A stretch of DNA of 64,000 nucleotides from IMG/VR virus record IMGVR_UViG_3300033145_002422; one strand, 5' to 3'. This stretch comes from a virus. Lineage: Duplodnaviria; Caudoviricetes. The translations under genes and the position numbers were made by a program. The notes below the pieces were generated by a model that worked only from the letters and a program-made list of their open reading frames with translations, had not been told where the DNA came from and did no database searches. Below are positions 5,320 to 50,045 of this stretch, one piece after another (positions within the stretch are counted from its first letter, which is position 1; the number at the start of each line of letters is the position of its first letter).

Positions 5320-5350
5320 CACCTGAAAAAATTGAAAAGTAAATACAAAT

Positions 5351-6853: not shown

Positions 6854-6910
6854 TCACCTGAAATTTCGTTTCTTTAATATGCCTTGTCCTCTAGCCGAAA
6901 GGAAGCGAAG

Positions 6911-7066: not shown

Positions 7067-7191
7067 AGGGGCGACCGAAACCTCTTTTCATAAAAAGGGA
7101 GGCTAGCGGACTATTTCCCTAGCCTCTCTACGGTTTTTCACCTGAAAACTTCCATTGATAATTTGTATTGTCCTAACGAAAGGAATTCAAG

Positions 7192-7428
7192 ATGTTTGAC
7201 GAACTCGTAATGCTCCATGCAGACCTCCGTTTGACAAATCGGGCGATGGCTGTTCAACGTTGCAGCAACGTCAAGCCGTTTCTAAGCGACCGCATCCAAG
7301 ACGCAATTGATGAGGGTCTTGTATATGTCGATGATGGTATGGGTTCAATGCTCCCACAGTTTCGTCTTACCGAAACTGGCGCAGAGTCGATGGCAGATAT
7401 GGAATGCTGCCTGATGGAAAGCTATTAA
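7192..7428 (+). CDS. hypothetical protein (possible winged-helix)
   Basis: EGLVY...FRLTETG resembles wHTH wing; RBS present. Confidence 0.55.
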   Translation: MFDELVMLHADLRLTNRAMAVQRCSNVKPFLSDRIQDAIDEGLVYVDDGMGSMLPQFRLTETGAESMADMECCLMESY

Positions 7429-7475
7429 GCCACCTGAAAAAAGAAAAGAAGTTGTTGCATTGTTCTTTGAAAACT

Positions 7476-7708
7476 GGAAGTCGGTCGCCTAGTAAGGGCT
7501 AGTCGGCAAACGAGCGCGCATCGTATTTGTCGATGAAATATTTTAATTTAATAGCTACTGTGGGAATCAGACATTAGCGGCAAGGCAGTTTAAGAGAGTT
7601 ACCTTGCATAATGAAGTCTAAGGACTTGCTATCCTAAGACAACTCTCTAAAGGGTGAAAACCTTCTACGCCAATGCGATGCGTAGTGGTTCAGTCCCTTC
7701 CGACTTTT
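7476..7708 (+). ncRNA. structured RNA with tRNA/tmRNA-like closing helices and a pseudoknot
   Basis: AAGTCGG(7478)/CCGACTT(7700); 12-bp helix 7516-7527/7672-7683; GGTTCAGTCC T-loop-like; crossing stems GCAAGG/CCTTGC and AGAGAGTT/AACTCTCT; GGT-GAAA-ACC tetraloop. Confidence 0.6.
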
Positions 7709-7979
7709 ATATTTTTTTTCACCTGAAAAAAGAAAACAAAAAAGAGAAGCGTTGAGAGAAGGCAGTATATTGTAGCAGTAAAAGGTTAAAGACATTGTAA
7801 ATTAAAAATAGAAAGGGGGTATGTTCTATTGACCTAACATGAGATTTGAGATAATGAAGAAAACACATATTGATGTTTGGCTAATGTAATGGAGTCAAGC
7901 CGTCCTAGCAATAAACGCTGGGGCAGCTGTAGTTTTTCACCTGAAAAACTAATCTTTCTTTGTAAATCATAAGGAGAAA

Positions 7980-8192
7980 ATGATGATTAAGGGAAAGTGT
8001 CTCACCAATTTGGATGATTACGATTTTGTGGAGTGGCCCACAGAATTCGTAGCCGTTCCGAAAATCGGCGATAGGGTAGAAAATGATAGCTTTGAAAATG
8101 ATCGTCGTGGAATCTTAAAAGTTGTTCGTATCACTCACTGTTATAATTGGAAAAGCAAAAAAGCATTTATAAAGATTGAACTGAACAAGTAG
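7980..8192 (+). CDS. hypothetical protein
   Basis: AAGGAG RBS; VPKIGDRVE...LKVVRITH; motif directly after TAG. Confidence 0.65.
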   Translation: MMIKGKCLTNLDDYDFVEWPTEFVAVPKIGDRVENDSFENDRRGILKVVRITHCYNWKSKKAFIKIELNK

Positions 8193-8239
8193 CACCTGAT
8201 TTTCCGATAGGATATTCATAATCAAAGGAGAATCGAATC

Positions 8240-8461
8240 ATGGCGAAGAAACCTAGCAGAGAAATTCCGACTTCCTTAACATTCATAATGAATGACCTTT
8301 CTCGTAAAGATATGAGAGTAGGCCAGATGTTCAGCAATCTGTTTTACTTCATTCGTAGCAAGGGCAAAGACCCTTTCTATGTTGAGAATGAAGAAATGGT
8401 GGGGCTGTTTCTTGAATCCCTTGCCGATAGCGGTTATAATCCGTTTCGGCCTGGCCAATAA
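8240..8461 (+). CDS. hypothetical protein
   Basis: DMRVGQM...DPFYVENE pattern typical of small phage proteins; RBS. Confidence 0.65.
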   Translation: MAKKPSREIPTSLTFIMNDLSRKDMRVGQMFSNLFYFIRSKGKDPFYVENEEMVGLFLESLADSGYNPFRPGQ

Positions 8462-8509
8462 TCACCTGATTTTTCGCTCTATCAAACAATGTTGAAAGGG
8501 GGAACTGAA

Positions 8510-8644
8510 ATGAATAGTATGAAGCGGAGATACTCTGGCCTTACGTTGGTCGAGTTAATGGCAGCAGTTTGGGCTATTATTTTGTTGGTTTTTGCTGCTG
8601 GCGTTGTTTGGGTTGCTATCCATTTCATTAGCAAATTTTGGTAG
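8510..8644 (+). CDS. 44-aa mini-pilin with prepilin cleavage/methylation motif
   Basis: MNSMKRRYSG|LTLVELMAAVWAIILLVFAAGVVWVAIHFISKFW* (basic leader, G at -1, E at +5, hydrophobic helix); not in ORF track (<60 aa). Confidence 0.75.
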   Translation: MNSMKRRYSGLTLVELMAAVWAIILLVFAAGVVWVAIHFISKFW

Positions 8645-8694
8645 CACCTGAAATGCTGTGGAAAAAATAGCAATAGCTACAAAGGAGAATTAAG

Positions 8695-9021
8695 ATGAAA
8701 AATTTTCTGCGGAAGTTGGTTTTAAGCAATCCCACGGCCTATTCCGATCTCAAAGTCGAAGCATTGGATTTACTGCTGGCATTGGAAAGCGAAGCGAAGC
8801 TGACAATCGCTGAACTCCGTAAGAAAAAGACGATTCTACGATTTGGTATTACCGAATTCCAGTACAGCGAAGTACAAAATGCTTTGTTTGAGAAAAATGA
8901 TCAGTGGAATACTCGAAAGATTATTGCTATCAAGTTAATGCGAGCATATGCTAATCTCGGACTTAAGACAGCGAAAGAAGCTGTTGAAAACGATGAGTAT
9001 TTTGTTAAGCCGCTCACCTGA
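8695..9021 (+). CDS. ribosomal L7/L12 C-terminal-like domain protein
   Basis: KIIAIKLMRAYANLGLKTAKEAVEN matches the L7/L12 CTD pattern KIxxIKxxRxxxxLGLKEAKxxVE. Confidence 0.7.
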   Translation: MKNFLRKLVLSNPTAYSDLKVEALDLLLALESEAKLTIAELRKKKTILRFGITEFQYSEVQNALFEKNDQWNTRKIIAIKLMRAYANLGLKTAKEAVENDEYFVKPLT

Positions 9022-9046
9022 AAAAATATCAATGGAGATTGAATCC

Positions 9047-9250
9047 ATGGCCGACGATTTTAAAAAGAAGATTTGTAAAGACCCGAAACTTGCCGCTGGT
9101 GGACATGATAATAATGGTTATAGATCCTACTGCACTTGTTGCGGGATTGAGCATCGTAGCCGATATGCTGGCCGTTATCGCAAGTTGTATCGTCGGAGGG
9201 CGCGACGGTCTTTGAAGCAGAACGCTAATTTCTCACCTGAAAATGATTAG
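9047..9250 (+). CDS. Arg-rich small protein
   Basis: GGAG RBS + ATG; CTCC motif; ends ...SPEND by reading through motif. Confidence 0.5.
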   Translation: MADDFKKKICKDPKLAAGGHDNNGYRSYCTCCGIEHRSRYAGRYRKLYRRRARRSLKQNANFSPEND

Positions 9251-9283
9251 AGATTCTTTCATACACCACTGAAAGGAACTTCA

Positions 9284-9787
9284 ATGTCGTATCTACCACT
9301 TAATACTGATAGAATTATATCCATGAGACAAAATATTGATTCGGCATTACACGCGATGCTTGATGAAGGCATTGAATTTGATGCTATCGTCATTCGTGGT
9401 ATGAGCGGAGCCTTATTCGCTCATTACGTTTTTGATAAAACTGGCAAGCCGATTGTTGTTGTTCGTAAAGGCGAATCTTCTCATGGTAGAGATGTAGAAA
9501 TTCCCTATCCTTCCAACATTAAGAAATATATCATTCTTGATGATTTGGTTGCATCTGGGAATACAATTATTTCCATAAAACAAAAAATGGATGAAATGCC
9601 ATTCAAAAGCAAAGCGTATGATTTTGAGTTGGTTGCTATCGTTTTATATGGTAGTGCGCCGATTGAAAGCGATCCTAATTACAATGCTTGGGGAATCGCT
9701 GGGCTGAAGGGAATACCCATCTTCACATTCCAAGGGCGTAGGTATCATTATGATATGAGTCCGTCACCTGAAATGGCAGAGGTTTAA
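9284..9787 (+). CDS. type I phosphoribosyltransferase-like protein
   Basis: YIILDDLVASGNTI PRPP-binding motif; VVVRKGESSHG. Confidence 0.8.
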   Translation: MSYLPLNTDRIISMRQNIDSALHAMLDEGIEFDAIVIRGMSGALFAHYVFDKTGKPIVVVRKGESSHGRDVEIPYPSNIKKYIILDDLVASGNTIISIKQKMDEMPFKSKAYDFELVAIVLYGSAPIESDPNYNAWGIAGLKGIPIFTFQGRRYHYDMSPSPEMAEV

Positions 9788-9877
9788 GGATAAGAGGGTA
9801 GGTTATCAAGGAGTCATGGAAATTTCCAATCTCCGTAACCTATCCTCACCTGTTTTTTTCGCTAAAAAGGAAATAGT

Positions 9878-10099
9878 ATGAAAAATGAGGAAATCGAAAT
9901 TCTCGTTCAAGCCTTTGAAAAAATGGGCAAGAAAATAACTCGTTGGATGGCTGGCCCATTGATGCTTGAAGCATATTTCACTTCGACTAATGGCAATACC
10001 ATTGTTATCAATGCTGATGGTATTACCGAAGTCAAAGGCAAATACGGCAAGGAATTTGAGTGCGACGAAAGCGAATTCGTCGGTAGTATCGAAGTCTAA
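9878..10099 (+). CDS. hypothetical protein
   Basis: AAGGA RBS; motif 3 nt after stop. Confidence 0.55.
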   Translation: MKNEEIEILVQAFEKMGKKITRWMAGPLMLEAYFTSTNGNTIVINADGITEVKGKYGKEFECDESEFVGSIEV

Positions 10100-10155
10100 T
10101 CCACCTGATTTTTCTTTTGTAACTCTTGCAATAACCCCAAACCGAAAGGAAAAAG

Positions 10156-10371
10156 ATGCACAAGCTAACCTACAATGTTGTCGGAAACAAGATGTTCGCG
10201 GTTTGCGTCGCGTGCGGCACGCGGGCCAGCGTCAAGATGAGCGGTCGTATGACGGAGCGGAAGGGGATTAACTACAATCATGCCACTGCGAAGGCGAAGC
10301 TGTACGGTCACCTGATGGCTTCCGTTTGCAGCAAGGTGCCGGTGCCTGCGATTTTTCCGCTGATTGCCTAA
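10156..10371 (+). CDS. hypothetical protein (CxxC)
   Basis: AAAGGA RBS. Confidence 0.55.
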   Translation: MHKLTYNVVGNKMFAVCVACGTRASVKMSGRMTERKGINYNHATAKAKLYGHLMASVCSKVPVPAIFPLIA

Positions 10372-10631
10372 CCATGGAATAGGCTTGTCAGTTAAACTAA
10401 ACTGCGGCCTCTTAAGCCGAATGTGGGATGCAGCCCACCAAGCCCTATTTTTCACCTGAAAACTTTTCGCCAAAAGTAGGATCATCGGAAAGAACAAGCC
10501 ATGATAAATTACGAAACCTTTGGTCCGAGACACGCTGACGAAGTCCGAAGCGGAAAAGAAAAGAGGTGGCAGGCTAGCAGACGTGCGAGCAAGGGAAAAC
10601 TAACAGCCCGCGAAGGCAGAATGGAGCGAAC

Positions 10632-11387
10632 ATGAAAGCGAACATGAACCCGAAAGACCTACAAGAGGTGCTGCGTTTGCACGAATTGTGGCTGGCCGGT
10701 GACCCAGGGGGGAGCTGCGCCAACCTTTGCGGTGCCAACCTTTACCGCGCCAACCTGAGTGACGTCAATCTTTACGGTGCCAACCTTTGCGGTGCCAACC
10801 TTTACCGCGCCAACCTTTACCGCGCCAACCTTTGCCGCGCCAACCTGAACCGCGCCAACCTAAGCTATGCCAACCTTTACCGCGCCAACCTGAACCGCGC
10901 CAACCTGAGTGACGCCAACCTTTACCGCGCCGACCTGAACCGCGCCAACCTGAGTGACGTCAATCTTTACGGTGCCAAACTGAACCGCGCCAACCTGAGT
11001 GACGCCAACCTGAACCGCGCCAACCTGAACCGCACCAACCTGAGCAATGCCAACCTGAACCGCGCCAACCTGAGTGACGTCAATCTTTACGGTGCCAACC
11101 TTGATTATGCTTCATGGCCGTTGTGGTGTGGGTCGCTTACTGCAAAGATTGACCGCCAGATTGCCGCCCAACTGGCCTACCACTTGCTTTCTGTCTGGCC
11201 GGAAGAGCGTCACGGGTCGATTCTAACGCTGGCTAACGAGTTTCACCGCATCCCCAAGCTGCTGAAACTGAATGAAACCAAGGACTCCGACGGGCAGATC
11301 AGGCCGTGCGGCGCGAGGCGAAACGAGGACGACCTGCCGTCGTACGCGCCGCTTGGCTATCACGATTTGACGCCGGAGGATGAATAA
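10632..11387 (+). CDS. pentapeptide repeat protein
   Basis: ~25 A-N-L-x-x repeats, with LRLHELWL N-cap and WPLWCGSL C-cap. Confidence 0.9.
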   Translation: MKANMNPKDLQEVLRLHELWLAGDPGGSCANLCGANLYRANLSDVNLYGANLCGANLYRANLYRANLCRANLNRANLSYANLYRANLNRANLSDANLYRADLNRANLSDVNLYGAKLNRANLSDANLNRANLNRTNLSNANLNRANLSDVNLYGANLDYASWPLWCGSLTAKIDRQIAAQLAYHLLSVWPEERHGSILTLANEFHRIPKLLKLNETKDSDGQIRPCGARRNEDDLPSYAPLGYHDLTPEDE

Positions 11388-11568
11388 TATGTGCGCCGGG
11401 ATTCAGCGGATGCGAACCAAGGGCTGGATGATGCCGCCGGGAACGATCTACGTGGGACGCCCGACGCCGTGGGGCAACCCATTTCGAGTGGGGCCGGACT
11501 TGTCAGCGGCCCGCGCGGTCGATCTCTATCTTCAAACTATTCCCCAGATTCCGACAGCATACCTGTAG
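11380..11568 (+). pseudogene. truncated DUF4326-like protein
   Basis: IYVGRPTPWGNPF motif but no C-terminal LxCWC...CH part. Confidence 0.6.
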
Positions 11569-11701
11569 TCCATTTTGGGGAATGTGGGGGATCGAAATTC
11601 TTTGGCTTGGTCGAGAGATTTTTGTAGTTTTCGGCAAAGACAAAAACGGTTTTTACAAGTTGACCGATTACTAAGTCACCTGAAAAATAGGAGATAGAAG
11701 C

Positions 11702-11896
11702 ATGGCAAAGCGAATTGTAATAACAATCGAAGTTGTCAATGCAGCTTTCGATCCCACTGAAACCCTTGAAACAGCAAGGATTTTGACAGTCCTTCGCAAT
11801 ACTATTAGCATGCAACGAAATTTCAAAAGCGATGATTACTTCATGCTTTATGATGCTAATGGAAATACCGTCGGCGGCGCAAGCATCAAAGAATAG
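11702..11896 (+). CDS. hypothetical protein
   Basis: NAAFD...ETARIL...LYDANGNTVG pattern; motif directly after TAG. Confidence 0.65.
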   Translation: MAKRIVITIEVVNAAFDPTETLETARILTVLRNTISMQRNFKSDDYFMLYDANGNTVGGASIKE

Positions 11897-11966
11897 CACC
11901 TGAAAAAGAAAACAAATTACCACATTGTTCAAAAAGTAAAGAGTTGTTCAAAAAGTAAAGAGTTGT

Positions 11967-12067
11967 ACGGTTGAATTAAGGATTGACAAAAACTTAGCGG
12001 CTGCAACTGCTAAGATAACAAATCAATCCGCCTTTGCAGGGGAAAACGGCGTTTAGTCGTCAACCGT
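11967..12067 (+). ncRNA. putative structured RNA (nested stems)
   Basis: ACGGTTGA/TCAACCGT, GGATTGA/TCAATCC and CTTAGCGG/CTGCTAAG stems; no ORF. Confidence 0.45.
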
Positions 12068-12176
12068 TTTTATTAGGGGGGGGAGAGGATAGCCTTGATA
12101 AGGCACTCTCCCCTCTATTTTTCACTTGAAAAACAAACCAAAACCTTTAATATATACTAACCGAAAGGCAAAACAA

Positions 12177-12491
12177 ATGAAGATTCCGAATCGAAATAGG
12201 CCACGTCGAAAGCAAAGGCAAGAGGAAGCTGCGGAACGGCAAAAAGAAAGCGACAAGTTGACTCCGCTCCAGAAGTTTGCTAAGATTATCAAGCACAATC
12301 TCACCGCAATGAAGGAACGTAGCAAGCTACAGAAGCTCATTGATGCTGAAAAGGCATCGAAAGTCGAAACTGTCAAGGCGAAGGCACCTGATACCACCAG
12401 CGAAGCGGAGAAGGTTGCTAAGAAGGCGAAGAAGGCAGCGAAGCAGAAGCGGAAGGAAGCGAGGGACAAGGCGAAGTCTGCAAAGAAGTAA
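12177..12491 (+). CDS. Lys/Ala-rich basic (histone H1-like composition) protein
   Basis: KVAKKAKKAAKQKRKE...AKSAKK; RBS before ATG. Confidence 0.65.
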   Translation: MKIPNRNRPRRKQRQEEAAERQKESDKLTPLQKFAKIIKHNLTAMKERSKLQKLIDAEKASKVETVKAKAPDTTSEAEKVAKKAKKAAKQKRKEARDKAKSAKK

Positions 12492-12523
12492 AAGGCACCT
12501 GAAAACGAAAAAGAAATTGTAAA

Positions 12524-12719
12524 AGAGTTATGAGACTGCCGCTAGTCCATTCAAGAGGTTGGATAACGCTCTTGACGCATAATGTAGCGAGAAGCTAGTG
12601 GCAGTCTCAAATGTTTGGGCTGAGAGAGAAAGCGTCCAAGGCGACTCCGCTAAAATCCTTGGCAAAAAAATTAGGGCGGGTATTGACCTCCTAATTCTTG
12701 GTTGGATCGGTAGAACTCT
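12524..12719 (+). ncRNA. putative multi-stem structured RNA
   Basis: 15-bp helix 12531-12545/12595-12609 enclosing TCAAGAG/CTCTTGA; CCAAGG/CCTTGG; AATTAGG/CCTAATT; closing GAGTT/AACTC. Confidence 0.55.
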
Positions 12720-13084
12720 CACCTGAAAAAAGAAAGAATCTCAAAGAGTTATAATGTATGGGAAGTTATGATGGGGAGCGAGAGATTTTTGGCAACGATT
12801 GTTTGAATAAGCTACCGCTTGTTTGCATAGCCGAATTTCTTTCGCTCTAATGTTTTATTTCACTTGAAAATTTTCCGAAAAAAGTAAAAACATGATAAGA
12901 TATTATGTTAAGAAAACGGATTTCAAAAAAGCTATTCAATTCTGCGAACAAAACAAAGTTTGGTGGGATTTGATATTTGACAATTCAAGGTATGAGTCTG
13001 AAAAGTATATTATTCTTCAGATGAATATACATGGTAGTAAAATGTTGTCAAACCACCTGAATTACCAATAGGAAAAAATAAACC

Positions 13085-13282
13085 ATGCTCACCAAAGAAT
13101 CCATACAAGCCTATATCAAAGCCCATGAATCATGCAACGATTTGCCTTGCCCATTCTGCGGACGGTTTGAAGTAAAACAGGGGGATAAGGATTCTGGCTG
13201 TTCTGTTGCTTCTACCACCTGTAGAAGTTGTGGAAAACGATGGAGAGAGTATTACACCCTTACTGGGATTGAGGAAGAATAG
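13085..13282 (+). CDS. Zn-ribbon protein
   Basis: CPFCG...CRSCGKRWREYY. Confidence 0.7.
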   Translation: MLTKESIQAYIKAHESCNDLPCPFCGRFEVKQGDKDSGCSVASTTCRSCGKRWREYYTLTGIEEE

Positions 13283-13609
13283 ATGAAGATAACCCACTGC
13301 GATTTTTGCGGCAAACTTCTCACCACCGAAGATTCTGGCAAAATCATGCACCATGAATATGTGGAAGGTTTGCCAGTTGATTTGATTCACTGTAAGGTTT
13401 GCGCCACGAAATATTATCCTGGCCCTTGGTACATCGAAGTTGGAAATTTCAGCAGGTATTGGCATATTCGTAATGCTATAACTGGCAAGCGAAAGAGGAT
13501 TGGAAAGGTACAAGCCAAAGGTGTTAATTATTTTGTAAAAGCAAAAGAGGAATGCGGACTAAGAAATCTAGCTCTTCACCTCAAGACTTGTGATGATATT
13601 CTCACCTGA
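13283..13609 (+). CDS. Zn-finger hypothetical protein
   Basis: CDFCG...CKVC; TGA stop inside motif. Confidence 0.65.
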   Translation: MKITHCDFCGKLLTTEDSGKIMHHEYVEGLPVDLIHCKVCATKYYPGPWYIEVGNFSRYWHIRNAITGKRKRIGKVQAKGVNYFVKAKEECGLRNLALHLKTCDDILT

Positions 13610-13647
13610 AAATCCTAAGCAGTAATCATAATCAAAGGAGAAACGAA

Positions 13648-13860
13648 ATGCTCAAGATCGGTGATAAAGTAAGAGTTAATGGAAATGAACTGCTTGAAGG
13701 AACAATTATCAGCGATCAATTCATCGTTCACGACGATCAGTTTGGCGATTTATCGCTCCAAGCAGTTCACTTGAAGCATGGTGGATGGCTTGACGAAAAC
13801 GAGAGTTGCTATATCTCTATGATCGTTGTTCACATCGACAACATGAAGAAAATCACCTGA
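13648..13860 (+). CDS. small SH3/KOW-like protein
   Basis: LKIGDKVRV...GTI; TGA stop inside motif. Confidence 0.6.
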   Translation: MLKIGDKVRVNGNELLEGTIISDQFIVHDDQFGDLSLQAVHLKHGGWLDENESCYISMIVVHIDNMKKIT

Positions 13861-13894
13861 TTTTTTCCGAAAAAAAGAAAAGTAGGAGAAAACC

Positions 13895-14083
13895 ATGAAA
13901 CTAAACGATCTGATTGATGAAGTCTACGGTGGCAAGCATCTTCGCAGAGGCAATAGGGGGCCGATTGCACGATTCAATGGTGACGATTTTTCTTTATGGT
14001 ATTACAGCAGACAAGATGGAAGAAAACTTTTCCCCATTACCTTCGGTGATATGATTGCAGAAAATTGGGAAGTTGTTTCCTAG
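13895..14083 (+). CDS. hypothetical protein (DUF2829/Tad2-like ending)
   Basis: GKHLRR...DMIAENWEVV resembles the DUF2829 C-terminus; weak. Confidence 0.5.
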   Translation: MKLNDLIDEVYGGKHLRRGNRGPIARFNGDDFSLWYYSRQDGRKLFPITFGDMIAENWEVVS

Positions 14084-14136
14084 AATCACCTGATTTTCTA
14101 TTCAAAAAGATCAATTCAACCAAAGGGAGCAAAACC

Positions 14137-14334
14137 ATGAAAATCAAATGCCTCAATTGCCATACGACCTTCGAGGGTGAAACAAAATCGAGTCTTAATG
14201 GCGAAGTTAAAGAAGAAAAGTTTGACTGCCCAAGCTGCGCTATTACCAACATCGTCGGAGAAGTTGATGATGAAGGCAATATTACCAACGGCGAATGCGG
14301 TTGGTACGGCGAAGAAGGAGAAGGCCATACCTAA
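14137..14334 (+). CDS. Zn-ribbon protein
   Basis: MKIKCLNC...FDCPSC; GGGAG RBS. Confidence 0.6.
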   Translation: MKIKCLNCHTTFEGETKSSLNGEVKEEKFDCPSCAITNIVGEVDDEGNITNGECGWYGEEGEGHT

Positions 14335-14550
14335 AGCTAATAGCAAATTCACCTGAAAACCGACAAAAGAAAGAAATAACATGAGCTGCCAAACAGAATA
14401 TAACGAACATAAAGAAATGTGTCTTAAGGGGGAACATGGCCCTTGGCAACTTTGCACGAGTGACTCTCTCGGAAGAACACTTCCTATGAGAATGTGTTCT
14501 TGGTGCGGAAGAGTGGAGTTCTTCAAACATGAGCAATGGGTTTAAGCGTA

Positions 14551-14765
14551 ATTCACCTGAAAAAACGACAAATAAGTAACAACATAAAGGAGAAAACAAT
14601 ATGGAAAGACTATGGGAATGTGAAGATTGCAGTTATCAAACCGAATGGTCGTATGACCAGCTTGCAGAACAAGGTGGACCAGTTTGCCCGAATTGCGATA
14701 ATGATATGGAGTTGCTACCACCTGATCTAGATTCACCTGAAAAAACGACAAATAAGTAACAACAT
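14551..14765 (+). repeat. 35-bp perfect direct repeat starting at the motif
   Basis: ATTCACCTGAAAAAACGACAAATAAGTAACAACAT at 14551-14585 and 14731-14765. Confidence 0.9.
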
Positions 14766-14870
14766 GGGAACAAACAAGAAAGAGATTCTGTTGAGCGTAC
14801 TGCTCGTTGTAGCCTTGGGGCTATTCATTCTCATGGTTGCAAACTGCTTATTGGCCACCTGAAAAACAGA

Positions 14871-15110
14871 ATGAAAGGAAAGCAGTATGAAAAAGACGAC
14901 ATTGAAAAAACCTTCCGTAGATTCAAGAAAAGCGACCAAGGGAGAGTAGCGTTGGTCCGATGGGATGACACTGGCCGAGAGGACATGATGATTCTCGAAG
15001 TTGACGACGATGGGAGAGAGGCAAAAGCCTTTCACTTTAGCGGTCGTTACATGCAACGAGTCACACATACACAAGTCTGTGAAATTGGAGGGTTTGTAAA
15101 GGTCGGTTGA
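14871..15110 (+). CDS. hypothetical protein, last ORF of the array
   Basis: 79 aa ORF immediately after last motif. Confidence 0.5.
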   Translation: MKGKQYEKDDIEKTFRRFKKSDQGRVALVRWDDTGREDMMILEVDDDGREAKAFHFSGRYMQRVTHTQVCEIGGFVKVG

Positions 15111-15156
15111 AGTGCAGTAAACAAAGTCACAGGCATGATTGGTACTCATATGTACC

Positions 15157-15184
15157 AGGGCTATGGCTCGGAGCTATAGCCCCT
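15157..15184 (+). terminator. hairpin closing the small-gene array
   Basis: GGGCTATGGC-TCGGA-GCTATAGCCC; poor U-tract. Confidence 0.45.
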
Positions 15185-15469
15185 TACTCTATAACTAACA
15201 TATGTAATTGTATCTATAGATAGCCATGGGAGGGACATACATATCTAAGTAAATACACGATAAGATATGGTAAGGGTATAGGTATGGAAATAAAAACATC
15301 ATATAACCCACCCTCCCCCCATACGTATGCTTGATAATACCCTATCGCCTATACCTGGGATACCTTAGTGCTAACGCCAATCCAGCCTCTTAATCAATGG
15401 CATAATTTGTTAAGTATTTTCAAAAATAATTCTGATATAATAGAGGGTGTATATTTGATAGGAGTTGTT

Positions 15470-16168
15470 ATGAATAGTTATTATGAAAGAAATAAAGAAA
15501 AGATATTAAAAAAAATAAAATTAAGATTTCAAGATGATATTGAATATAGAAATCATAAAAAAGAATATTCTAAAAAATATTATATTAAAAATAAAGAATC
15601 AATTAATTTAAGAAATAAAAAATGGAAAGAAAAACAAAGAATACCTCTTAGACAATTTGTTAATAAATATCTAGAAGAAAATCCGTGTGTATTATGCGGA
15701 GAAAAAGACATTGATTGTCTTCAGTTTCATCATATTGTATCTACAAAAGAAAAAATATCTTATTATGTAACTAAGGGGAAATGCACTATAGAAAGAATAA
15801 AAAAAGAAATAAGCAAATGTCAGGTTTTATGCGTTAATTGTCATACTAAATTACACAACAAAACAATTAAGTATGTATCAGAAGAAAGTAAAAAGGGATG
15901 GAAGGCTAAACAGAAAATAAGACATCGTGCTGTTAAGAGAGAATATATCATAAATATTAAAAAGAATAATCCTTGTTATATATGTAAAGAAAATGATTAT
16001 AGATGCTTAGCTTTTCATCACAAAAACCCTGAAGAAAAAGAAATTAAAATATCTAGTAAAATTAGTTGGGAAAAATTAAAAAATGAAATAGCTAAATGTA
16101 TTTTGGTTTGTTGTAATTGTCATTTTAAAATACACTCAAATATTATAGGAAAACATATGCAGGAATAA
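15470..16168 (+). CDS. tandem two-domain HNH endonuclease
   Basis: two CxxC...L(Q/A)FHH...EIxKCxxxCxNCH repeats; AGGAG RBS. Confidence 0.85.
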   Translation: MNSYYERNKEKILKKIKLRFQDDIEYRNHKKEYSKKYYIKNKESINLRNKKWKEKQRIPLRQFVNKYLEENPCVLCGEKDIDCLQFHHIVSTKEKISYYVTKGKCTIERIKKEISKCQVLCVNCHTKLHNKTIKYVSEESKKGWKAKQKIRHRAVKREYIINIKKNNPCYICKENDYRCLAFHHKNPEEKEIKISSKISWEKLKNEIAKCILVCCNCHFKIHSNIIGKHMQE

Positions 16169-42016: not shown

Positions 42017-42601
42017 ATGGGAAATTTAAATGAATATACTTTAGTTTTAAATAAAGGATGGACTCCGGTAGCTGTTACGAGAGTTAAAGATGCATTAATA
42101 AAATTATTTAATAATTCAGCAAAAATAGTAGATGAGAGTAACTATGAAACGTTTACTTGGGATGAATGGGTTGATAAATATTCATTTTTTCTTGATGATA
42201 CTAGTAAAGATGATGATTTTAATTTTGTGTTTTCTCAGAGATTGAAAATAAGAGTCCCTGAAGTTATTGTTTTGAATAACTATAGCAAGATACCAGAGAG
42301 AAAAATGAGATTGACAAGAAAGAACTTGCTTTTAAGAGATAGATATAAATGTCAATATACTGGAAAAAAGCTAAATGCTGATAATGCAACTATAGATCAT
42401 ATTCTTCCTCAAAGCAGAGGAGGGAAAAGTGTTTGGGAGAATGTTGTTATATGTTCGCCAGATGTAAATACTAAAAAGGCAAATAAAACTCCTAATGAAG
42501 CTGGAATTAAATTATTAAAAAATCCTCATCAACCAATTTGGCATCCTCTTTTTGCTGTTTCAAATAAAAAAAAGTTAGATTCTTGGAAAAAGTTTTTATA
42601 A
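42017..42601 (+). CDS. McrA-type HNH endonuclease
   Basis: LVLNKGW...RDRYKCQYTG...TIDHILPQSRGG...WENVV..N.KK. Confidence 0.88.
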   Translation: MGNLNEYTLVLNKGWTPVAVTRVKDALIKLFNNSAKIVDESNYETFTWDEWVDKYSFFLDDTSKDDDFNFVFSQRLKIRVPEVIVLNNYSKIPERKMRLTRKNLLLRDRYKCQYTGKKLNADNATIDHILPQSRGGKSVWENVVICSPDVNTKKANKTPNEAGIKLLKNPHQPIWHPLFAVSNKKKLDSWKKFL

Positions 42602-42615: not shown

Positions 42616-43314
42616 ATGATATATAAAAGATTAAAGCATAATTCTATTAAGTCCAGAATAAAACCCAAAAAATGGACTAAGGTTCTTTTGAATGAGCCAT
42701 GCTTTATTCTGGGAAATGGACCATCTTTAACAGATGGTAACATACATGTTTTACAAGATAAATATTTTACTATTGGTATAAATAGTTCTTGCGATTTATT
42801 TGATTCTACTATATTAATGTGGCAGGATATAGAATTTTTTTATTCTAAGAGAAAAGTTTTACCTAATTTAAAGTCTATTCTTTTTTGTAGAGATTCTTCA
42901 GACCCTATGAATTTAGCATATCATTTTTCTTTAGAGAGTGGTGGTTTTCATGTTCCAAGAAATGCTTCTGTATTAATGGGCAGGGGATCGACCGGCCCTC
43001 TCGCTTTTCAATTGGCATATGTTCTTGGATGTGATCCAATAGTTTTATTGGGTTTTGATTGTAGGAATAGAGACGGTAAAACAGATTTTTATGGTGTAAA
43101 TAAGTTTCATAAGCCTCATACTATGAATTCTTGTCGAAGGGGATTAAAATGGGTTAGAGATTGTCAACATGATAGAAAAATTATTAATTGTTCAGATAAT
43201 TCTGTTTTTACAGAAAGTTTAAAATTAACAGATGTTGTAGAAGAGTTAAGTAAAGATTATCCATATAGAACAAGAAAATATTTTAATGCGAAGTTAATAG
43301 ATGAATTAGAGTGA
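42616..43314 (+). CDS. Maf/DUF115-like protein
   Basis: FILGNGPSL...TIGIN...LGCDPIVLLGFD. Confidence 0.7.
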   Translation: MIYKRLKHNSIKSRIKPKKWTKVLLNEPCFILGNGPSLTDGNIHVLQDKYFTIGINSSCDLFDSTILMWQDIEFFYSKRKVLPNLKSILFCRDSSDPMNLAYHFSLESGGFHVPRNASVLMGRGSTGPLAFQLAYVLGCDPIVLLGFDCRNRDGKTDFYGVNKFHKPHTMNSCRRGLKWVRDCQHDRKIINCSDNSVFTESLKLTDVVEELSKDYPYRTRKYFNAKLIDELE

Positions 43315-43356
43315 TGATAAAATTGTTATAATAGTTTTTAGAAATAGGAGGAAGTT

Positions 43357-44223
43357 ATGAAAGAACTGAGACGTGGGCAAGGGAATAGTAGTAATAGTTT
43401 AAATGAGAATGAGAGTGGACTTTATAAGATAAAACCATCATTGTATGAAACAAACAATTCTGAAGAATTAGGTCCACCGATTTCTGATGAAGAGAGACTA
43501 GTTAAAGTAACAAATATGAATATAGGGCAATTATATAGATTGTTTGATGGGTCTAATTATAGTTATCAAAGATTTGTTTTGAAAAAGTTTTTTGGAAATT
43601 CTGACTTTTCTTCTATACAAGAAGAGGTTTGTTTTTATAGAAACAATGTTTTGCAATTTGTTCAAAGCAAATTTTTTAAGTCGAATGGATATAAGATTGT
43701 AGCAGAATTGCCATCGAGTAGAAATAACGGTTCAATTCCAAAGAAATCTTCTGTTCAATGCGATATTAATAAGCGTTTTATAGTATATGCTGATGCTTTG
43801 GTTTTTTATGAGAATGATAAGTCTGAAAAGATAGTAATATCCTTTTCTTTGGATTCGTATTCCGGTCAAACATTTTACGAGTTATTTTCTTCTACCGATC
43901 CAGATGTACTTTGGCAGGAATGGCAAGAGTATGGTAAGAAAAACAATCTATATAAGAATAAAAAGATAGATGCTAATTGTGGTTTTCTTAAGATAGATAA
44001 GAAAATCACATGGGGAGATATTATTTTAACAGATAAATTCATAGACATAATAAAATCTAATGTGTTGAATATATTTTCAATGAGAGATCTTCTGGAAAAA
44101 AATAAAATATCTTTGAAGAGAGGAATAATATTTTCTGGAAAACCGGGATGTGTTATAAAAGGAACTAAAATAAAAATTAGAAAGAAAAAAGAAAAAGGAA
44201 GGCACAATATTATATACGAATAA
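43357..44223 (+). CDS. AAA+ ATPase N-part fused to 24-aa split-intein N-fragment
   Basis: KRGIIFSGKPG|CVIKGTKIKIRKKKEKGRHNIIYE*; IntN 44149-44220. Confidence 0.88.
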   Translation: MKELRRGQGNSSNSLNENESGLYKIKPSLYETNNSEELGPPISDEERLVKVTNMNIGQLYRLFDGSNYSYQRFVLKKFFGNSDFSSIQEEVCFYRNNVLQFVQSKFFKSNGYKIVAELPSSRNNGSIPKKSSVQCDINKRFIVYADALVFYENDKSEKIVISFSLDSYSGQTFYELFSSTDPDVLWQEWQEYGKKNNLYKNKKIDANCGFLKIDKKITWGDIILTDKFIDIIKSNVLNIFSMRDLLEKNKISLKRGIIFSGKPGCVIKGTKIKIRKKKEKGRHNIIYE

Positions 44224-44280
44224 TATTATATAGTCCTAATACAGGTAGTTTGAACAATTTTATACCTCTGGAGATATAAT

Positions 44281-45318
44281 ATGAAAGAGAAATTATTTTT
44301 TAGAAATTGCCCAGCATGTAATGTTAAAATGGGATATACAACAAAAAAAGAATGCTTTAAAGCAGAAAAAAATAATAGTTTTTGTAAAAAATGCAGGAAA
44401 TTAAAATTAGAGATAAGCAAAAATGAAAAATGTTTTTTCAGAGAATGTTATGTTTGTGGTAGGAAAGTTGGATATACTAACAAAAAGAACATGAATAGGG
44501 CCAAGAAGATTAATCGCCCTTGTGCAAGTTGTGTATCTAAGGGTGTTCAAAATAGACCTGATATAATAAAGAGAAAATCACTATATGCAATTGCCCATTC
44601 TTTAGGAGAGCTTAATCCTTTTTATGGTAGGCATCATACAGAAAGTTCAAAAAATAAAATAAGAAATAATGTAGATAGATCCTTTTCACAAACTAAAGAA
44701 TTTAGGGAAAAGTCTGCTAGAAAAGGTATTAAAAATGGTATGTATGGAATATCTTATTACGATGTTTGGGTTGTTAAATATGGAGAAGAAGAAGCTAATA
44801 AAAAGTTGATAGATCTTAAAAAGAGAAAATCTATTCAGACATCAGGAAAAAATAATCCTATGTATGGAAGGAAATCTCCTGTAGGATCTGGAAATGGATG
44901 GAGTGGATGGTATAAGGGTTGGTATTTTAGAAGTTTAAAAGAATTATCATATATGATATATGTTATTGAAAAAAATAGGTATAAATGGATTAGTGCGGAG
45001 ACTAAAGAATTAAGAATTCCATATATAGATTATAACGGAAAAGATAAAACATATGTAGCTGATTTTTTTATTAATAATTCTATTCTTGTGGAAGTTAAAC
45101 CAAAGCAATTAATGGGAACTATTAACAATAGGTTAAAAAAAGAGGCTGCTATAAAGTTTTGTAAAATTTTTGGATACAAATATGTTATGGTTGATGTAAA
45201 ACTTATAGAAGTATCTATTTTGATTGATTTGTATAAAAATGGTCAAGTTGTATTAATTGAAAAGTATAATAAGAAATTGGAGAAAATAATATGCAAATTG
45301 GAGAAGAAAAAGAAGTAG
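44281..45318 (+). CDS. free-standing homing endonuclease (NUMOD3 repeats + TnsA-like PD-(D/E)xK)
   Basis: NPFYGRHHT, NPMYGRK; FRSLKEL...IPY...YVADF...VEVKP. Confidence 0.8.
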   Translation: MKEKLFFRNCPACNVKMGYTTKKECFKAEKNNSFCKKCRKLKLEISKNEKCFFRECYVCGRKVGYTNKKNMNRAKKINRPCASCVSKGVQNRPDIIKRKSLYAIAHSLGELNPFYGRHHTESSKNKIRNNVDRSFSQTKEFREKSARKGIKNGMYGISYYDVWVVKYGEEEANKKLIDLKKRKSIQTSGKNNPMYGRKSPVGSGNGWSGWYKGWYFRSLKELSYMIYVIEKNRYKWISAETKELRIPYIDYNGKDKTYVADFFINNSILVEVKPKQLMGTINNRLKKEAAIKFCKIFGYKYVMVDVKLIEVSILIDLYKNGQVVLIEKYNKKLEKIICKLEKKKK

Positions 45319-46322
45319 AAATTCAGGATTTATTTGTTTTTGCGCAAGATGATGGAATATATGAGATAGAAACTCCCCAAGGATGGGTTGAGATAGGTGA
45401 TTTAATTATGAAGCGTGATAAAGATTGTTATTTAATTAGAACTAATTCTGGAAAAGAATTGGGAGGTTCTTCGGATCATTATGTAGAGACAACTAATGGT
45501 TGGGAAAAGCTAGAAGATATAAATGTTCAAAATACTACAGTATATACATCATCAGGTGAAGATGATATAGTTTCTAAAGAATATATAGGTAAAGATGATA
45601 CTTATGATTTAGAAGTAAAAAATAATGATCATAAATATTATGCGAATGGGATCGTTTCCCACAATACCGGCAAGACTATGTTGTGTAAAATTCTTGCTAA
45701 GGAGGTAGATGCTACTGTAATTTATGTTCTTCCATCTCATGTTAAGCAGTTATTTGATATATCAAGAATATGTGATATGGCAAGAGAACTTGCTCCATCT
45801 TTAATAATTATAGAAGATATAGATTTTTTGACAAAAGACAGAACAGGAGGAAATAATTGGTCTGTTGTAGAACTTATGAATCAAATGGATGGTATAGAAG
45901 ATTTTAAAGATATTATTACATTGGCTACAACTAATATGGTTGATGATATAGAGAAGGCTATTAAGAATAGGCCAGGAAGATTCGATAGAGTTATAGATAT
46001 TCCTTCGCCAGATCTCAAGACGAGAATTAGAATGTTTAATAGATTTTGTGTTAATTTTAATATAGGTAAAGATGTAGATTTTAGTAAAATAGCTAAAGAA
46101 ACGAATAATGCAACAGGAGCCTATATAAAAGATGTATGTATTACCGCTGCATTTATCGCTATACAGGATGGTAGCGTGAATAAGAATGGAAAGGTTATTA
46201 TTTTTAATAAACATTTTAATGAATCTTTGAGAGAAATAAAAGATAAGGATTTTAGTCGTTTTTCTGAAGTAACTAATTCAAAGAGATCTATAGGATTTGG
46301 TGATTCTCCTAAATCTGATTAA
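45291..46322 (+). CDS. split-intein C-fragment (125 aa) fused to AAA+ ATPase C-part
   Basis: SSDH block B, TYDLEV...YYANGIVSHN|TGKT; Walker B IIIEDID; LATTN; RPGRFDR. Confidence 0.9.
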   Translation: MQIGEEKEVEIQDLFVFAQDDGIYEIETPQGWVEIGDLIMKRDKDCYLIRTNSGKELGGSSDHYVETTNGWEKLEDINVQNTTVYTSSGEDDIVSKEYIGKDDTYDLEVKNNDHKYYANGIVSHNTGKTMLCKILAKEVDATVIYVLPSHVKQLFDISRICDMARELAPSLIIIEDIDFLTKDRTGGNNWSVVELMNQMDGIEDFKDIITLATTNMVDDIEKAIKNRPGRFDRVIDIPSPDLKTRIRMFNRFCVNFNIGKDVDFSKIAKETNNATGAYIKDVCITAAFIAIQDGSVNKNGKVIIFNKHFNESLREIKDKDFSRFSEVTNSKRSIGFGDSPKSD

Positions 46323-46388
46323 TTTTTTTAAAGATTTATTTTTATACTATTATAATATATGTTTTAATAATTTAAGAGGGAAAAAATA

Positions 46389-49300
46389 ATGATACAAAAG
46401 ATTTATTCTTATGAAGAGGTATATAATTCTACCTTGGAATATTTTAATGGAGATGAATTAGCGACAAAGGTTTTTATCAATAAATATGCACTAAGAAATA
46501 AAGAACAAGAGTTATTAGAGAAAAGCCCAGATGATATGCATTGGAGAATAGCTAACGAAATAGCTAGGATTGAAAAAGATAAGTTTAAAAATCCAATGAA
46601 TGCTGAAGATATATTTGAATATTTGAAAGGTTTTAAAAGGCTTATTCCACAAGGTTCTCCAATGAATGGGATAGGAAATCGTTTTCAATATACATCGTTA
46701 AGTAATTGTTACGTTATTGAGCCTCCTGTGGATAGTTACGGAGGAATTCATTTATCTGATGAGCAGTTAACACAGATTAGCAAAAGAAGGGGAGGTACAG
46801 GATTAGATATTTCTAATTTAAGACCGGATGGAACTCCAACTTCCAATGCAGCAAAAACTTCCACTGGTATTATACCTTTTATGGAGAGATTTTCCAATTC
46901 GATAAGAGAGGTAGGTCAATGTTTATATTCGTCGTCTATGATTCTTTTATCGAGAGGATTGACAAGAATTGATCGTGTTAATATTGGAGATAGTGTATGG
47001 ACAGAGAATGGGTGGGCTAATGTAGAGAAAGTGGTAAAAAATAAAAAAGATACTATTAAAATAAAAACCAAACGAGGTTTTGAAATTATTTGTAGTCGAA
47101 ATCATTTTTTGCATACTTCTGAGGGGGAGAAAAAAGCCATAGATTTTTCACATGGCGATAGTATAACGGCTATCGCAGGTCAAGAATGGTATGGTGAAGA
47201 AATAAATTTGGTTGTAGGATATAAAAAGAGCAATTATAACAATTCTAATAGACTTAATGAGAATGTAAAAGAACCTCATGTTCTTACTGCTGAATTGGCT
47301 TATCTTATTGGATATTCTTATGGTGACGGGTATGTTGGCAAACATCGTCATAATAAGTCCAACTGTTCGTTGGAACTCGCTTGTTCAAACCAATATCCAG
47401 AAATAATTAAAAAGTTACAATCTATTTTCAAAAATGAATACAATCTTGATGTTAAAGAATCCGACAGGTCTAACCGTGGAGATATGGTTTCGTTAAGAGT
47501 TTCGTCAAGGATGTTGTTAAATCATTTGGAACAAAATAATATTCTTAAGGAACATGCTGGTTGTTTAAAATTGCCTGAATGTTTATTTAAAGCAAAAAGT
47601 GAAGTCGTGTTTGGTTTTATAGCGGGATATTTCGATGCCGATGGGACTGCAATTGAATCAAAAAAAGTTTATAGATTTGCATCAATTGATAATCAATTTT
47701 TGAAAGATATTCAAAAGATACTTTTAGCATATGGAATTGTATCAACGATATATATACAAGATAGATCAAATATGGGTTGGCATAATATAAGTGCTTTGTC
47801 AATTAATGGTCGTAGAAATCAGGAAAAATTTTCAGAGCTTTGCAATCAAAGTGTCAAAGTTAATCATGCTAGATGGGTGCCAAAAGTAAGGGACTTTACT
47901 CGAACAATTTATAATACATCTGATTATACAACTAGAGCCAGTCGCCATGGATATATTATAGATGATAGACAGAAGATTTCTTATTCTACTTCGGAGCGTC
48001 TTTGTTCAGATTTACAAATTAGGGATTCATACTGCTTAATTGAAGATCAAATTGAATCGGTGGATGAGTTTGAGTTAAACAGCGATGTATATGACTTGTG
48101 TTTAGATCATACTCATTTTTTTAGTGCAAATGGTATATATGTTCATAATTCAGGTAGACGTGGCGCGTTGATGATTTCTATTTCAATTCATCATCCAGAA
48201 GTTTCAGAATTTGCTAAAATTAAGAGAGATAAAAAGAAGGTTACTGGAGCTAACATATCAGTAAGATTGTCTGACGAGTTTTTAAAAGCAGTTGAAGAAA
48301 ATAAAGAGTATGAGCAGCGATGGCCTGTCGATTCTAAAGAACCAGTTGTTTCTAAAATGGTTAATGCAAGAGAAATTTGGATGCAGTTTATAGAAAGTGC
48401 ATGGGATTGTGCAGAACCAGGTTTGCTTTTTTGGGATAGTATTATAAGAGAGAGTCCAGCAGATTGTTATCCAGGTTTCCAGACAGTCGGCACTAATCCC
48501 TGTGGCGAAATTCCGTTGAGTGCATTAGACAGTTGTAGACTTCTGGTTATAAATATATTCAATTATGTGAAGAATGCGTTTACGAATAAAGCAGAATTCG
48601 ATTACGATGCTCTTAGGAAGGATGCTATTATTGCTCAGAGATTTATGGATGATATTATTGATTTAGAGTTAGAAGCAATAGGTAAAATTATTAACAAGAT
48701 TAAAAGAGATCCAGAAGAAGACAGAATTAAACGAGTAGAATTGGAAATGTGGCAAAATATTAAAAAAGCATGTCAAAACGGAAGAAGAACAGGTGTTGGA
48801 ACTACCGCTGTTGGTGATACTATCGCAGCTCTGGGATTTAAATACGGTTCTACAAGATCGATAGAAGTTGTTGATGAGATATATAGAACTATTAAATTGG
48901 GATGTTATAGAAGTTCTGTAGATATGGCAAAAGAGTTAGGGGCATTTCCTGTATGGGATTTTGAATTAGAAAAAAATAATCCTTATTTATTAAGAATCAA
49001 AGACGATGATCAAGAATTATGGGATGATAATAAAAAATATGGAAGGCGTAATATATCCAATACGACGTTGGCTCCATCTGGAAGTGTTTCTTTATTATCT
49101 AGAACTACAAATGGAACAGAACCAGTTTTTAAATTGTCATATAAGAGAAGAAGGAAAATAAATCCTGATGAACAAAATACTAGAGTTGATTTTGTCGATG
49201 CCAGCGGAGACCAGTGGGAAGAATTTATAGTATATCATCCCAAGGTTAAGAATTGGATGAAAATAACTGGTGAAACTGATATAGAAAAATCTCCATGGTT

Positions 49301-50045
49301 TGGATGCTGTGCTGGCGAATTGGATTGGAAGAAAAGAGTAAAGTTGCAAGCTACGATACAAAAACATATTGATCATTCTATTTCATCTACTGTAAATCTA
49401 CCTAAAGAAGCTACGGTAGAAGATGTTGCTAAAATATATGAGGAAGCATGGAAGCTTGGATGTAAGGGCATAACTATTTATAGAGAAGGAAGTAGAGCCG
49501 GTGTTTTGGTAGATGAAAACGAATCAGAAATTATTGTAAAAACTTCTGCTCTTAAAAGACCCAAAAAACTCCCATGCGACGTTCACCATCTTACTATAAA
49601 GGGAAATCAGTATTTTGTTTTGGTTGGATTATTAAATGGAGAACCATATGAAGTTTTTGCGGATAAAAATGGAGTAGTTTCAAGAAGTATTAAAAAAGGA
49701 GAAATTATTAAAGTAAAAAGAGGGCAATATAAAGCTATTTTTGATAATGAATTTGAGCTTGATAATTTAACTGAGCATTTAGACGATATGGAAGATACCA
49801 TAACTAGACTTGTTTCTTCTAATCTCAGGCATGGAACCGATATAAAATTTTTGGTTCAACAGCTTGAAAAGTCTAAAGGCGATGTTTTGTCGTTTGAAAA
49901 GGCTATTGCAAGGGCTTTGAAAAAATATATTAAAGATGGGACTATTGTTACTGGAGAGGTTTGTGAATCCTGTAAAGGGACTAATCTTGCTAGACAAAAC
50001 GGGTGTGTTACTTGTATGGATTGTGGTTGGAGTAAATGTTCATGA
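46389..50045 (+). CDS. nrdJ: class II (B12-dependent) ribonucleotide reductase with intein
   Basis: LSNCYV, TNPCGEIPL, APSGSVS, KGITIYR, C-terminal Zn-ribbon GCVTCMDCGWSKC; no nrdB in window. Confidence 0.9.
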   Translation: MIQKIYSYEEVYNSTLEYFNGDELATKVFINKYALRNKEQELLEKSPDDMHWRIANEIARIEKDKFKNPMNAEDIFEYLKGFKRLIPQGSPMNGIGNRFQYTSLSNCYVIEPPVDSYGGIHLSDEQLTQISKRRGGTGLDISNLRPDGTPTSNAAKTSTGIIPFMERFSNSIREVGQCLYSSSMILLSRGLTRIDRVNIGDSVWTENGWANVEKVVKNKKDTIKIKTKRGFEIICSRNHFLHTSEGEKKAIDFSHGDSITAIAGQEWYGEEINLVVGYKKSNYNNSNRLNENVKEPHVLTAELAYLIGYSYGDGYVGKHRHNKSNCSLELACSNQYPEIIKKLQSIFKNEYNLDVKESDRSNRGDMVSLRVSSRMLLNHLEQNNILKEHAGCLKLPECLFKAKSEVVFGFIAGYFDADGTAIESKKVYRFASIDNQFLKDIQKILLAYGIVSTIYIQDRSNMGWHNISALSINGRRNQEKFSELCNQSVKVNHARWVPKVRDFTRTIYNTSDYTTRASRHGYIIDDRQKISYSTSERLCSDLQIRDSYCLIEDQIESVDEFELNSDVYDLCLDHTHFFSANGIYVHNSGRRGALMISISIHHPEVSEFAKIKRDKKKVTGANISVRLSDEFLKAVEENKEYEQRWPVDSKEPVVSKMVNAREIWMQFIESAWDCAEPGLLFWDSIIRESPADCYPGFQTVGTNPCGEIPLSALDSCRLLVINIFNYVKNAFTNKAEFDYDALRKDAIIAQRFMDDIIDLELEAIGKIINKIKRDPEEDRIKRVELEMWQNIKKACQNGRRTGVGTTAVGDTIAALGFKYGSTRSIEVVDEIYRTIKLGCYRSSVDMAKELGAFPVWDFELEKNNPYLLRIKDDDQELWDDNKKYGRRNISNTTLAPSGSVSLLSRTTNGTEPVFKLSYKRRRKINPDEQNTRVDFVDASGDQWEEFIVYHPKVKNWMKITGETDIEKSPWFGCCAGELDWKKRVKLQATIQKHIDHSISSTVNLPKEATVEDVAKIYEEAWKLGCKGITIYREGSRAGVLVDENESEIIVKTSALKRPKKLPCDVHHLTIKGNQYFVLVGLLNGEPYEVFADKNGVVSRSIKKGEIIKVKRGQYKAIFDNEFELDNLTEHLDDMEDTITRLVSSNLRHGTDIKFLVQQLEKSKGDVLSFEKAIARALKKYIKDGTIVTGEVCESCKGTNLARQNGCVTCMDCGWSKCS
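46920..48149 (+). mobile_element. intein (410 aa) with LAGLIDADG endonuclease in RNR
   Basis: VGQ|CLYSSS...ANGIYVHN|SGRRGA; LIGYSYGDG and IAGYFDADG. Confidence 0.93.

Follow-up and report, generated by a model that had tools for sequence, protein, structure and literature searches.

We analyzed a 64,000-nucleotide (nt) stretch of DNA from a large uncultured phage (IMG/VR record IMGVR_UViG_3300033145_002422; hereafter the window), in which positions 43357-46322 contain three open reading frames (ORFs), all on the (+) strand, with the two halves of one AAA+ ATPase flanking a nuclease gene. This locus very probably represents a class-1 intein that is split naturally and atypically, in the manner of VidaL (S1 type). 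The intein interrupts a conserved AAA+ ATPase of phages within its Walker A loop, and the gene of this ATPase is fractured around a presumed free-standing homing endonuclease. From the sequences of the locus and its relatives, we infer with high confidence that the intein splices in trans. Atypically split natural inteins in fractured genes are a known kind; new here are the host gene and a distinct subfamily with an N-terminal intein fragment (IntN) of 24 amino acids (aa). A first-pass annotation of this DNA had suggested that the host gene and the split site may both be new. The former is retained and extended by the new subfamily, whereas the kind of intein and its split site were already known. 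Neither an AAA+ host, nor a 24-aa IntN subfamily with a His tail, nor a TnsA-like nuclease in such a role was found in the searchable literature, the coverage of which is incomplete.

Layout of the locus and the exact junction

Gene 1 (43357-44223, +; 288 aa) encodes a 264-aa N-extein (43357..44148, +) that ends with ...GIIFSGKPG, where GKPG forms the first half of the Walker A motif, and a subsequent 24-aa tail, the IntN (44149..44223, +; 24 codons plus stop; CVIKGTKIKIRKKKEKGRHNIIYE). The Cys1 codon (44149-44151) directly follows GKPG, the His19 codon is located at 44203-44205, and the gene is terminated by a TAA stop codon at 44221-44223. After a spacing of 57 nt follows gene 2 (44281-45318, +), the free-standing nuclease gene, whose 345-aa product shows a Pfam NUMOD3 match. 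Gene 3 (45291-46322, +; 343 aa) overlaps gene 2 by 28 nt (45291-45318) in a different frame and has a GGAG 8 nt 5' of its ATG. It encodes the 125-aa C-terminal intein fragment (IntC; 45291..45665, +), which contains the residues of block B (S60..H63), block F (D106) and block G (H124-N125) and ends with ...YYANGIVSHN, followed by the C-extein (45666..46322, +; 218 aa plus stop codon) with Thr+1, TGKT (TGKTMLCK...), the AAA domain and the lid. The codon of the terminal Asn of IntC occupies positions 45663-45665 and that of Thr+1 positions 45666-45668. Each ATPase half is an intact ORF with its own GGAG. The first-pass annotation had described a Walker A motif GKPG|TGKT divided over two genes, a very basic gene 1 tail starting with Cys1, an acidic 125-aa intein remainder ending with SHN|T at the start of gene 3, and an endonuclease gene that lies between the halves and overlaps gene 3. 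All of this was borne out by the ORFs, the junction sequence and the net charges of the two fragments (+7 for IntN and -17 for IntC).

Gene 3 matched the Pfam families AAA (PF00004, E 3.7e-17) and AAA_lid_3 (PF17862) and, below threshold, Intein_splicing. A search with hmmsearch across the 64-kb window detected IntN, IntC and the nuclease only once each. A scan of positions 43200-46450 for sigma-70 promoters and terminators gave 19 sites compared to 22.1 in shuffled sequence, i.e., no excess.

The junction was defined by comparison with P0011, an uninterrupted 484-aa homologue. Residues 4-264 of the gene 1 product aligned with residues 1-267 of P0011 at 74% identity, with the alignment ending at ...GIIFSGKPG, and residues 126-336 of the gene 3 product aligned with residues 268-478 at 85% identity, with the alignment starting at TGKTMLCK. 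Nothing in P0011 corresponds to the 24 + 125 intein residues, and the exteins abut on P0011 exactly, with no residue lost or duplicated at GKPG|TGKT. Removal of the intein restores the Walker A motif GKPGTGKT (GxxxxGK[ST]), which is the same as in P0011. Together with the matches to PF00004 and the lid, the joined motif confirmed the identity of the host protein as an AAA+ ATPase. About 40 IMG/VR phage contigs contain uninterrupted orthologues of roughly 460-490 aa with the motif G.PGTGKT, and these are found in the same neighbourhood as in the window, 5' of a large ribonucleotide reductase gene. Because the exteins abut exactly on P0011 and the same arrangement is present in more than 30 independent loci (see below), the arrangement of the locus is not a product of chance.

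Kinship with VidaL and predicted association of the halves

In phmmer searches of the PDB, the best match of IntC was VidaL (6vgv, E 3.8e-8), followed by the DnaB, DnaX and gp41-1 inteins; CatC (6dsl) was absent from the matches. Residue 5 of IntC aligns with residue 22 of VidaL and, therefore, the window intein is split at the same position as VidaL (S1). A contiguous relative, L073, yielded the same alignment register. A PDB search with IntN plus ten extein residues gave no match, this query being too short.

The class-1 positions C1, H63, D106, H124 and N125 show no or almost no variation among 20-24 relatives (alignments A1, A3, and A4), and the +1 residue, Thr in the window, is T, C or S among them. 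In the IntN alignment A3, which comprises 20 sequences, C1, V2, I8, K12 and H19 do not vary, and every sequence has a hydrophobic residue at position 21. Synonymous codons occur at the invariant IntN sites, with both His, both Cys and all four Val codons in use. For the IntN core (residues 1-13), the pooled ratio of nonsynonymous to synonymous differences per site (pN/pS) was 0.34, a rough value since pS is near saturation. A duplication of the IntC N-terminus was considered as the source of residues 14-24 of IntN, but the similarity was too weak for such a claim. In summary, the locus shows the features of a class-1 intein (Cys1, block B, F and G residues, a +1 nucleophile, an in-frame insertion and the existence of intein-free alleles) and those of the atypical S1 type (an IntN within the short range of 15-37 aa on its own polypeptide, an IntC with blocks B, F, and G, and homology to VidaL with the break at the same position). 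The proposed atypically split intein with a 24-aa IntN and a Cys1/Thr+1 pair thus agrees with both the sequence and the relatives.

VidaL (PDB 6vgv/6vgw) shares with the window intein the S1-type split, the class-1 layout with Cys1, the C-terminal junction ...GIVSHN and an insertion inside the Walker A loop (G..G|[ST]GK[ST]). In PMC13014065, which cites Neugebauer 2017 and Burton 2020, VidaL appears as a proven natural split intein whose separate halves undergo trans-splicing, and the S1 position is described as lying after the first strands. By querying IMG/VR with part of the VidaL sequence, we found its native locus at 100% identity (L113-L116). In L113:3493-5077 (IMGVR_UViG_3300012031_000015), the N-half ends with ...FAGESG and the IntN CLPKEAVVQVRLTKKG, followed by a stop codon, 58 nt and an IntC ending with ...GIVSHN|SGKS. 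From this GESG|SGKS junction in a RecA/UvsX gene it follows that VidaL interrupts an ATPase of a different class at the corresponding P-loop position. The VidaL host gene of L113 is located 3' of a 343-aa ORF (2420-3451). Despite the common layout, VidaL has only about 30% identity to the window intein and differs in several further respects. Its host is a UvsX/RecA recombinase (Pfam RecA) rather than an AAA+ protein, its +1 residue is Ser instead of Thr, and the 58-nt gap between its halves holds no nuclease gene, whereas such a gene is present in the window. Moreover, VidaL has an IntN of only 16 aa, the end of which falls immediately before the position of the x-His-(N/K)-hydrophobic extension by which the window IntN reaches its 24 aa.

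The first-pass annotation had named AceL-TerL as an example of inteins with a short IntN. Its assignment to the short-IntN type was correct, but the nearest known relative is VidaL, as seen from the PDB match of IntC. AceL-TerL and GOS-TerL resemble the window intein in being naturally split into a short IntN of 25-37 aa and a long IntC and in originating from phage-like metagenomic DNA; according to PMC13014065, they are split after helix alpha-1 (S2), have a large terminase as host and carry Cys+1.

Complex prediction with IntC (alignment A4) and a partner consisting of ten N-extein residues plus IntN (A3) gave a score of 0.85, compared to 0.33 for the best of three controls. Of 80 solved complexes, 58 attained this mark, as did 2 of 110 mismatched pairs. 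The prediction runs agreed in at least 88% of the contacts, and the predicted local distance difference test score (pLDDT) of the partner was at least 72. In the most confident predicted contacts, the segment 6-13 of IntN lies between residues 8-11 and 23-27 of IntC, and Ile21 of IntN is predicted to lie against Leu38 of IntC.

We propose that gene 1 provides the N-extein with the basic 24-aa IntN and gene 3 the acidic 125-aa IntC with the C-extein. The IntN strand would slot between two strands of IntC, thereby completing the HINT fold. Cys1 would then form a thioester, Thr+1 would attack and Asn125 would cyclize, and an O-to-N shift would yield an ATPase of 482 aa in which the P-loop GKPGTGKT is restored. 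The confidently predicted association of IntN and IntC might also be that of intein halves which no longer splice and serve as a non-covalent dimerization module holding the ATPase fragments together. Non-covalent assembly of a gene product fragmented by a mobile element, through interaction domains that stem from such an element, is documented for NrdA of phage Aeh1 (PMC3045599). In the present case, however, a non-covalent joint would leave 149 foreign residues within the nucleotide-binding site of the P-loop, and diverged hosts invariably share the residues required solely for chemistry (C1, the His of block B, the Asp of block F, the HN at the end and the nucleophile at +1). Since such conservation is not expected of docking, a mere docking module is unlikely, and we regard this explanation as quite improbable.

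The free-standing nuclease

The gene 2 product combines two zinc ribbons (CxxC...CxxC) and NUMOD3 motifs with a C-terminal nuclease domain of the TnsA-like PD-(D/E)xK type, and it matched PHROG endonuclease family 15427. A nuclease gene of this type, encoding 295-346 aa with CxxC zinc ribbon(s) and NUMOD3 motifs, is present between the halves in 14 loci including the window. The fractured-gene layout with a nuclease ORF between two halves on the same strand is thus present in the window and 13 other loci. In the alignment of the nuclease family (A5), E240, D261, E271 and K273 are invariant and probably constitute a classical D...ExK site. Four orthologues (L002, L037, L048, and L072) scored 27.2-36.9 bits with the TnsA-like Pfam family PF08722, for which the cutoff is 26.5 bits.

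An AlphaFold2 model of the nuclease (pLDDT 81) had TnsA as its best fold match (1t0f_A, Z 8.5, root mean square deviation (rmsd) 6.3 Å, 134 aligned residues). A second TnsA structure (1f1z_A, Z 8.4, rmsd 2.9 Å, 108 aligned) was 2.6 Z above the next entry. Lower values were obtained for I-Bth0305I (Z 4.8, rmsd 4.3 Å, 79 aligned) and Vsr (Z 4.7, rmsd 4.7 Å, 83 aligned). Foldseek with the whole model also placed TnsA on top with weak E-values, the structural re-alignment being clearer, and PDB sequence searches with the nuclease or its family profile gave nothing meaningful. Membership in the Vsr-like family (EDxHD, I-Bth0305I) was rejected on the basis of the D...ExK site, a profile that lacked a match to 3r3p or Vsr in the PDB, and the higher Z of the TnsA fold. 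The initial description of a NUMOD3/TnsA-like endonuclease was therefore upheld by the Pfam NUMOD3 match, the PF08722 scores of the orthologues and the fold.

The fractured genes described by Dassa et al. (2009; PMC2677866) resemble the window locus in consisting of two same-strand half-genes, each with one intein part, and a free-standing homing endonuclease ORF between them. The nucleases also have in common that NUMOD3 motifs are located N-terminal to a catalytic domain of the restriction fold. In contrast, the nuclease families in that study are GIY-YIG and Vsr-like, whereas the window enzyme is TnsA-like with D...ExK; it is a restriction-fold enzyme outside the Vsr-like family of Dassa et al. 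The terms ATPase, AAA and Walker do not occur in the text of that paper (PMC2677866). We assume that the NUMOD3/TnsA-like nuclease is the mobility engine of the element and presumably cuts intein-free alleles in co-infecting phages, after which the whole cassette would be copied into the cleaved allele.

Relatives, alternatives and a possible origin of the split

Relatives were collected by a metagenome scan with the IntC alignment followed by scripted parsing; a metagenome scan with the single N-half protein gave no match. More than 30 distinct metagenomic loci contain the same pair of a 24-aa IntN and an IntC of about 125 aa, with IntN being 24 aa long in nearly all of them. The hosts comprise several AAA lineages of PF00004 as well as ClpB/C-like proteins, in which the D1 P-loop is the site of the intein. 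When 1.84 billion cluster representatives were searched with the IntC profile, 33 matches were obtained at E <= 1e-30 and 516 at E <= 1e-10. Among the 82 best-matching sequences examined, 44 were proteins starting with IntC in which the intein end reads HN|[TSC]GK[ST]. In four distant matches of the IntC profile that also start with IntC (P0156, P0181, P0186, and P0196), the intein end HN is followed by sequence other than a P-loop (e.g., TTSSAGF...); these look like putative large-terminase hosts of the AceL/GOS-TerL type. One AAA lineage showed 54-66% identity to the window protein in IntC and 27-33% in the extein, and for the window's own lineage (P0015-P0018) these values were 43-46% and 46-53%, respectively. 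Because IntC and extein identities disagree across lineages, the histories of intein and host appear to differ, which points to lateral movement between ATPase genes, as judged from identities rather than trees.

The nuclease gene is present in some loci and absent in others, and the split and the catalytic residues are kept without it. In loci lacking the nuclease, the gaps without an ORF measure 6-243 nt (e.g., about 200, 52, 38, 30, 11, and 6 nt), and in L057 only a 121-aa nuclease remnant is left. The IntN tail with His19 persists in loci without nuclease. In Clp-type hosts, unrelated ORFs of about 390 aa (L076:466-1638, L077, L079, and L084) or about 185 aa (L080:3815-4381, L082, L083, L085, and L086) occupy the same split site. 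They had no Pfam match, and the L076 ORF had one weak PHROG match to a Holliday junction resolvase; these ORFs may be other nuclease families on the same landing site.

Contiguous forms were found as well. L073:1798-2196 encodes a 133-aa mini-intein in another AAA gene, in which ...KIRIKDK runs directly into EEKEIAIEEFF, without IntN residues 14-24 and without the first four IntC residues; it weakly matched the engineered TerL consensus CatC (6dsl, E 2e-4). P0128 (L050:1183-1750), which belongs to the host lineage of the window, has a contiguous 162-aa intein without a stop codon, consisting of an IntN including the His tail, a 15-residue linker and an IntC with its initial Met retained. This looks like a split intein that was re-fused after loss of the nuclease. 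In P0143 and P0141, a NUMOD3/TnsA-like nuclease is fused in frame to the IntC N-terminus, which could be either a nuclease domain embedded at S1 instead of the canonical insertion site or a gene-calling artefact. Taken together, the remnant, the gaps and the contiguous forms suggest that the inserted cassette comprises tail, stop codon, nuclease and start codon.

Homing endonuclease genes do disrupt genes, and L057 retains no more than a nuclease remnant; the pieces of the ATPase gene could be decaying pseudogenes left after the endonuclease landed in the intein and broke it. We consider such a dead gene even less probable than non-covalent assembly, as both halves are intact ORFs each with a GGAG, the exteins are 74-85% identical to the uninterrupted allele, and more than 30 loci retain the split, together with conserved catalytic residues and evidence of purifying selection. 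Least probable of all is a group I intron that carries the nuclease ORF and whose removal (about 44221-45290) would create a contiguous cis-splicing intein. Group I introns do harbour related nuclease families (Dassa et al., 2009; PMC2677866), and contiguous relatives exist (L073, L050). However, a permissive Rfam scan of 43300-46400 gave no intron family at E up to 10, although a missing match is no proof that an intron is absent; the stop codon and the new start codon of nuclease-free relatives are separated by a spacer of 6-52 nt, which could not accommodate any intron; and VidaL, whose layout is the same, is assembled by trans-splicing of two polypeptides (cited in PMC13014065).

Several points weigh against a trans-splicing split intein with a homing endonuclease at this locus. 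IntN tail residues 14-24 evolve faster than the core, with a pN/pS of about 0.7 at saturated pS. In chemical terms, Cys1/Thr+1 is a less favourable pair than Cys/Cys, and the reaction might be slow. The structure of the VidaL complex has already been solved, and the predicted complex may have passed through likeness or memory alone. Finally, the nuclease copy of the window gave no match to PF08722 at E up to 10.

As a tentative extension, for which we see less than an even chance, the inteins with a 24-aa IntN may form a large, apparently uncharacterized natural subfamily that spread laterally among unrelated P-loop ATPase genes and whose split was born of the insertion of a nuclease cassette at S1, a second entry point for endonucleases in the HINT fold in addition to the canonical one. 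The cassette would then have brought along the IntN tail with His19, the stop codon and the IntC start, and the tail might act as a capture element specific for the split form.

In the window, the gene next to the split ATPase gene (46389-50045, +) encodes a 1218-aa ribonucleotide reductase with a contiguous intein including a LAGLIDADG endonuclease domain (Pfam matches Ribonuc_red_lgC, LAGLIDADG_3, and Intein_splicing). As this intein is contiguous and contains LAGLIDADG, two adjacent genes carry different kinds of inteins. Upstream of the locus are an ORF for an HNH endonuclease (42017-42601, +; Pfam HNH_4/HNH_5) and one for an MptE-like protein (42616-43314, +), and the gene order 5' of the locus resembles that of intein-free relatives. 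The G+C content is about 36-51% in positions 1-16000, with a 51% block at 10-12 kb, compared to 25-34% in positions 16001-64000.

Split inteins whose IntN is of peptide size are highly valued as tools for protein semisynthesis and for labelling in live cells. The locus adds an example with Cys1/Thr+1 and an IntN of 24 aa, which is short enough for chemical synthesis. Natural representatives are few, and five were used in one analysis of 2025 (PMC11923092). The relatives provide dozens of natural variants, which differ in the presence of the nuclease gene, in the +1 residue (Thr, Ser or Cys) and in being split, re-fused or never split, and which could be mined for fast or mutually orthogonal pairs. 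If the split indeed arose by cassette insertion at S1, the family would be a ready-made set of possibly orthogonal pairs of peptide-sized IntN and IntC. For the phage, the locus would represent a selfish element in the most conserved motif of an ATPase, where no active enzyme would exist until splicing has occurred, and its relatives display the full cycle of gain and loss of a homing endonuclease at a non-canonical intein position.

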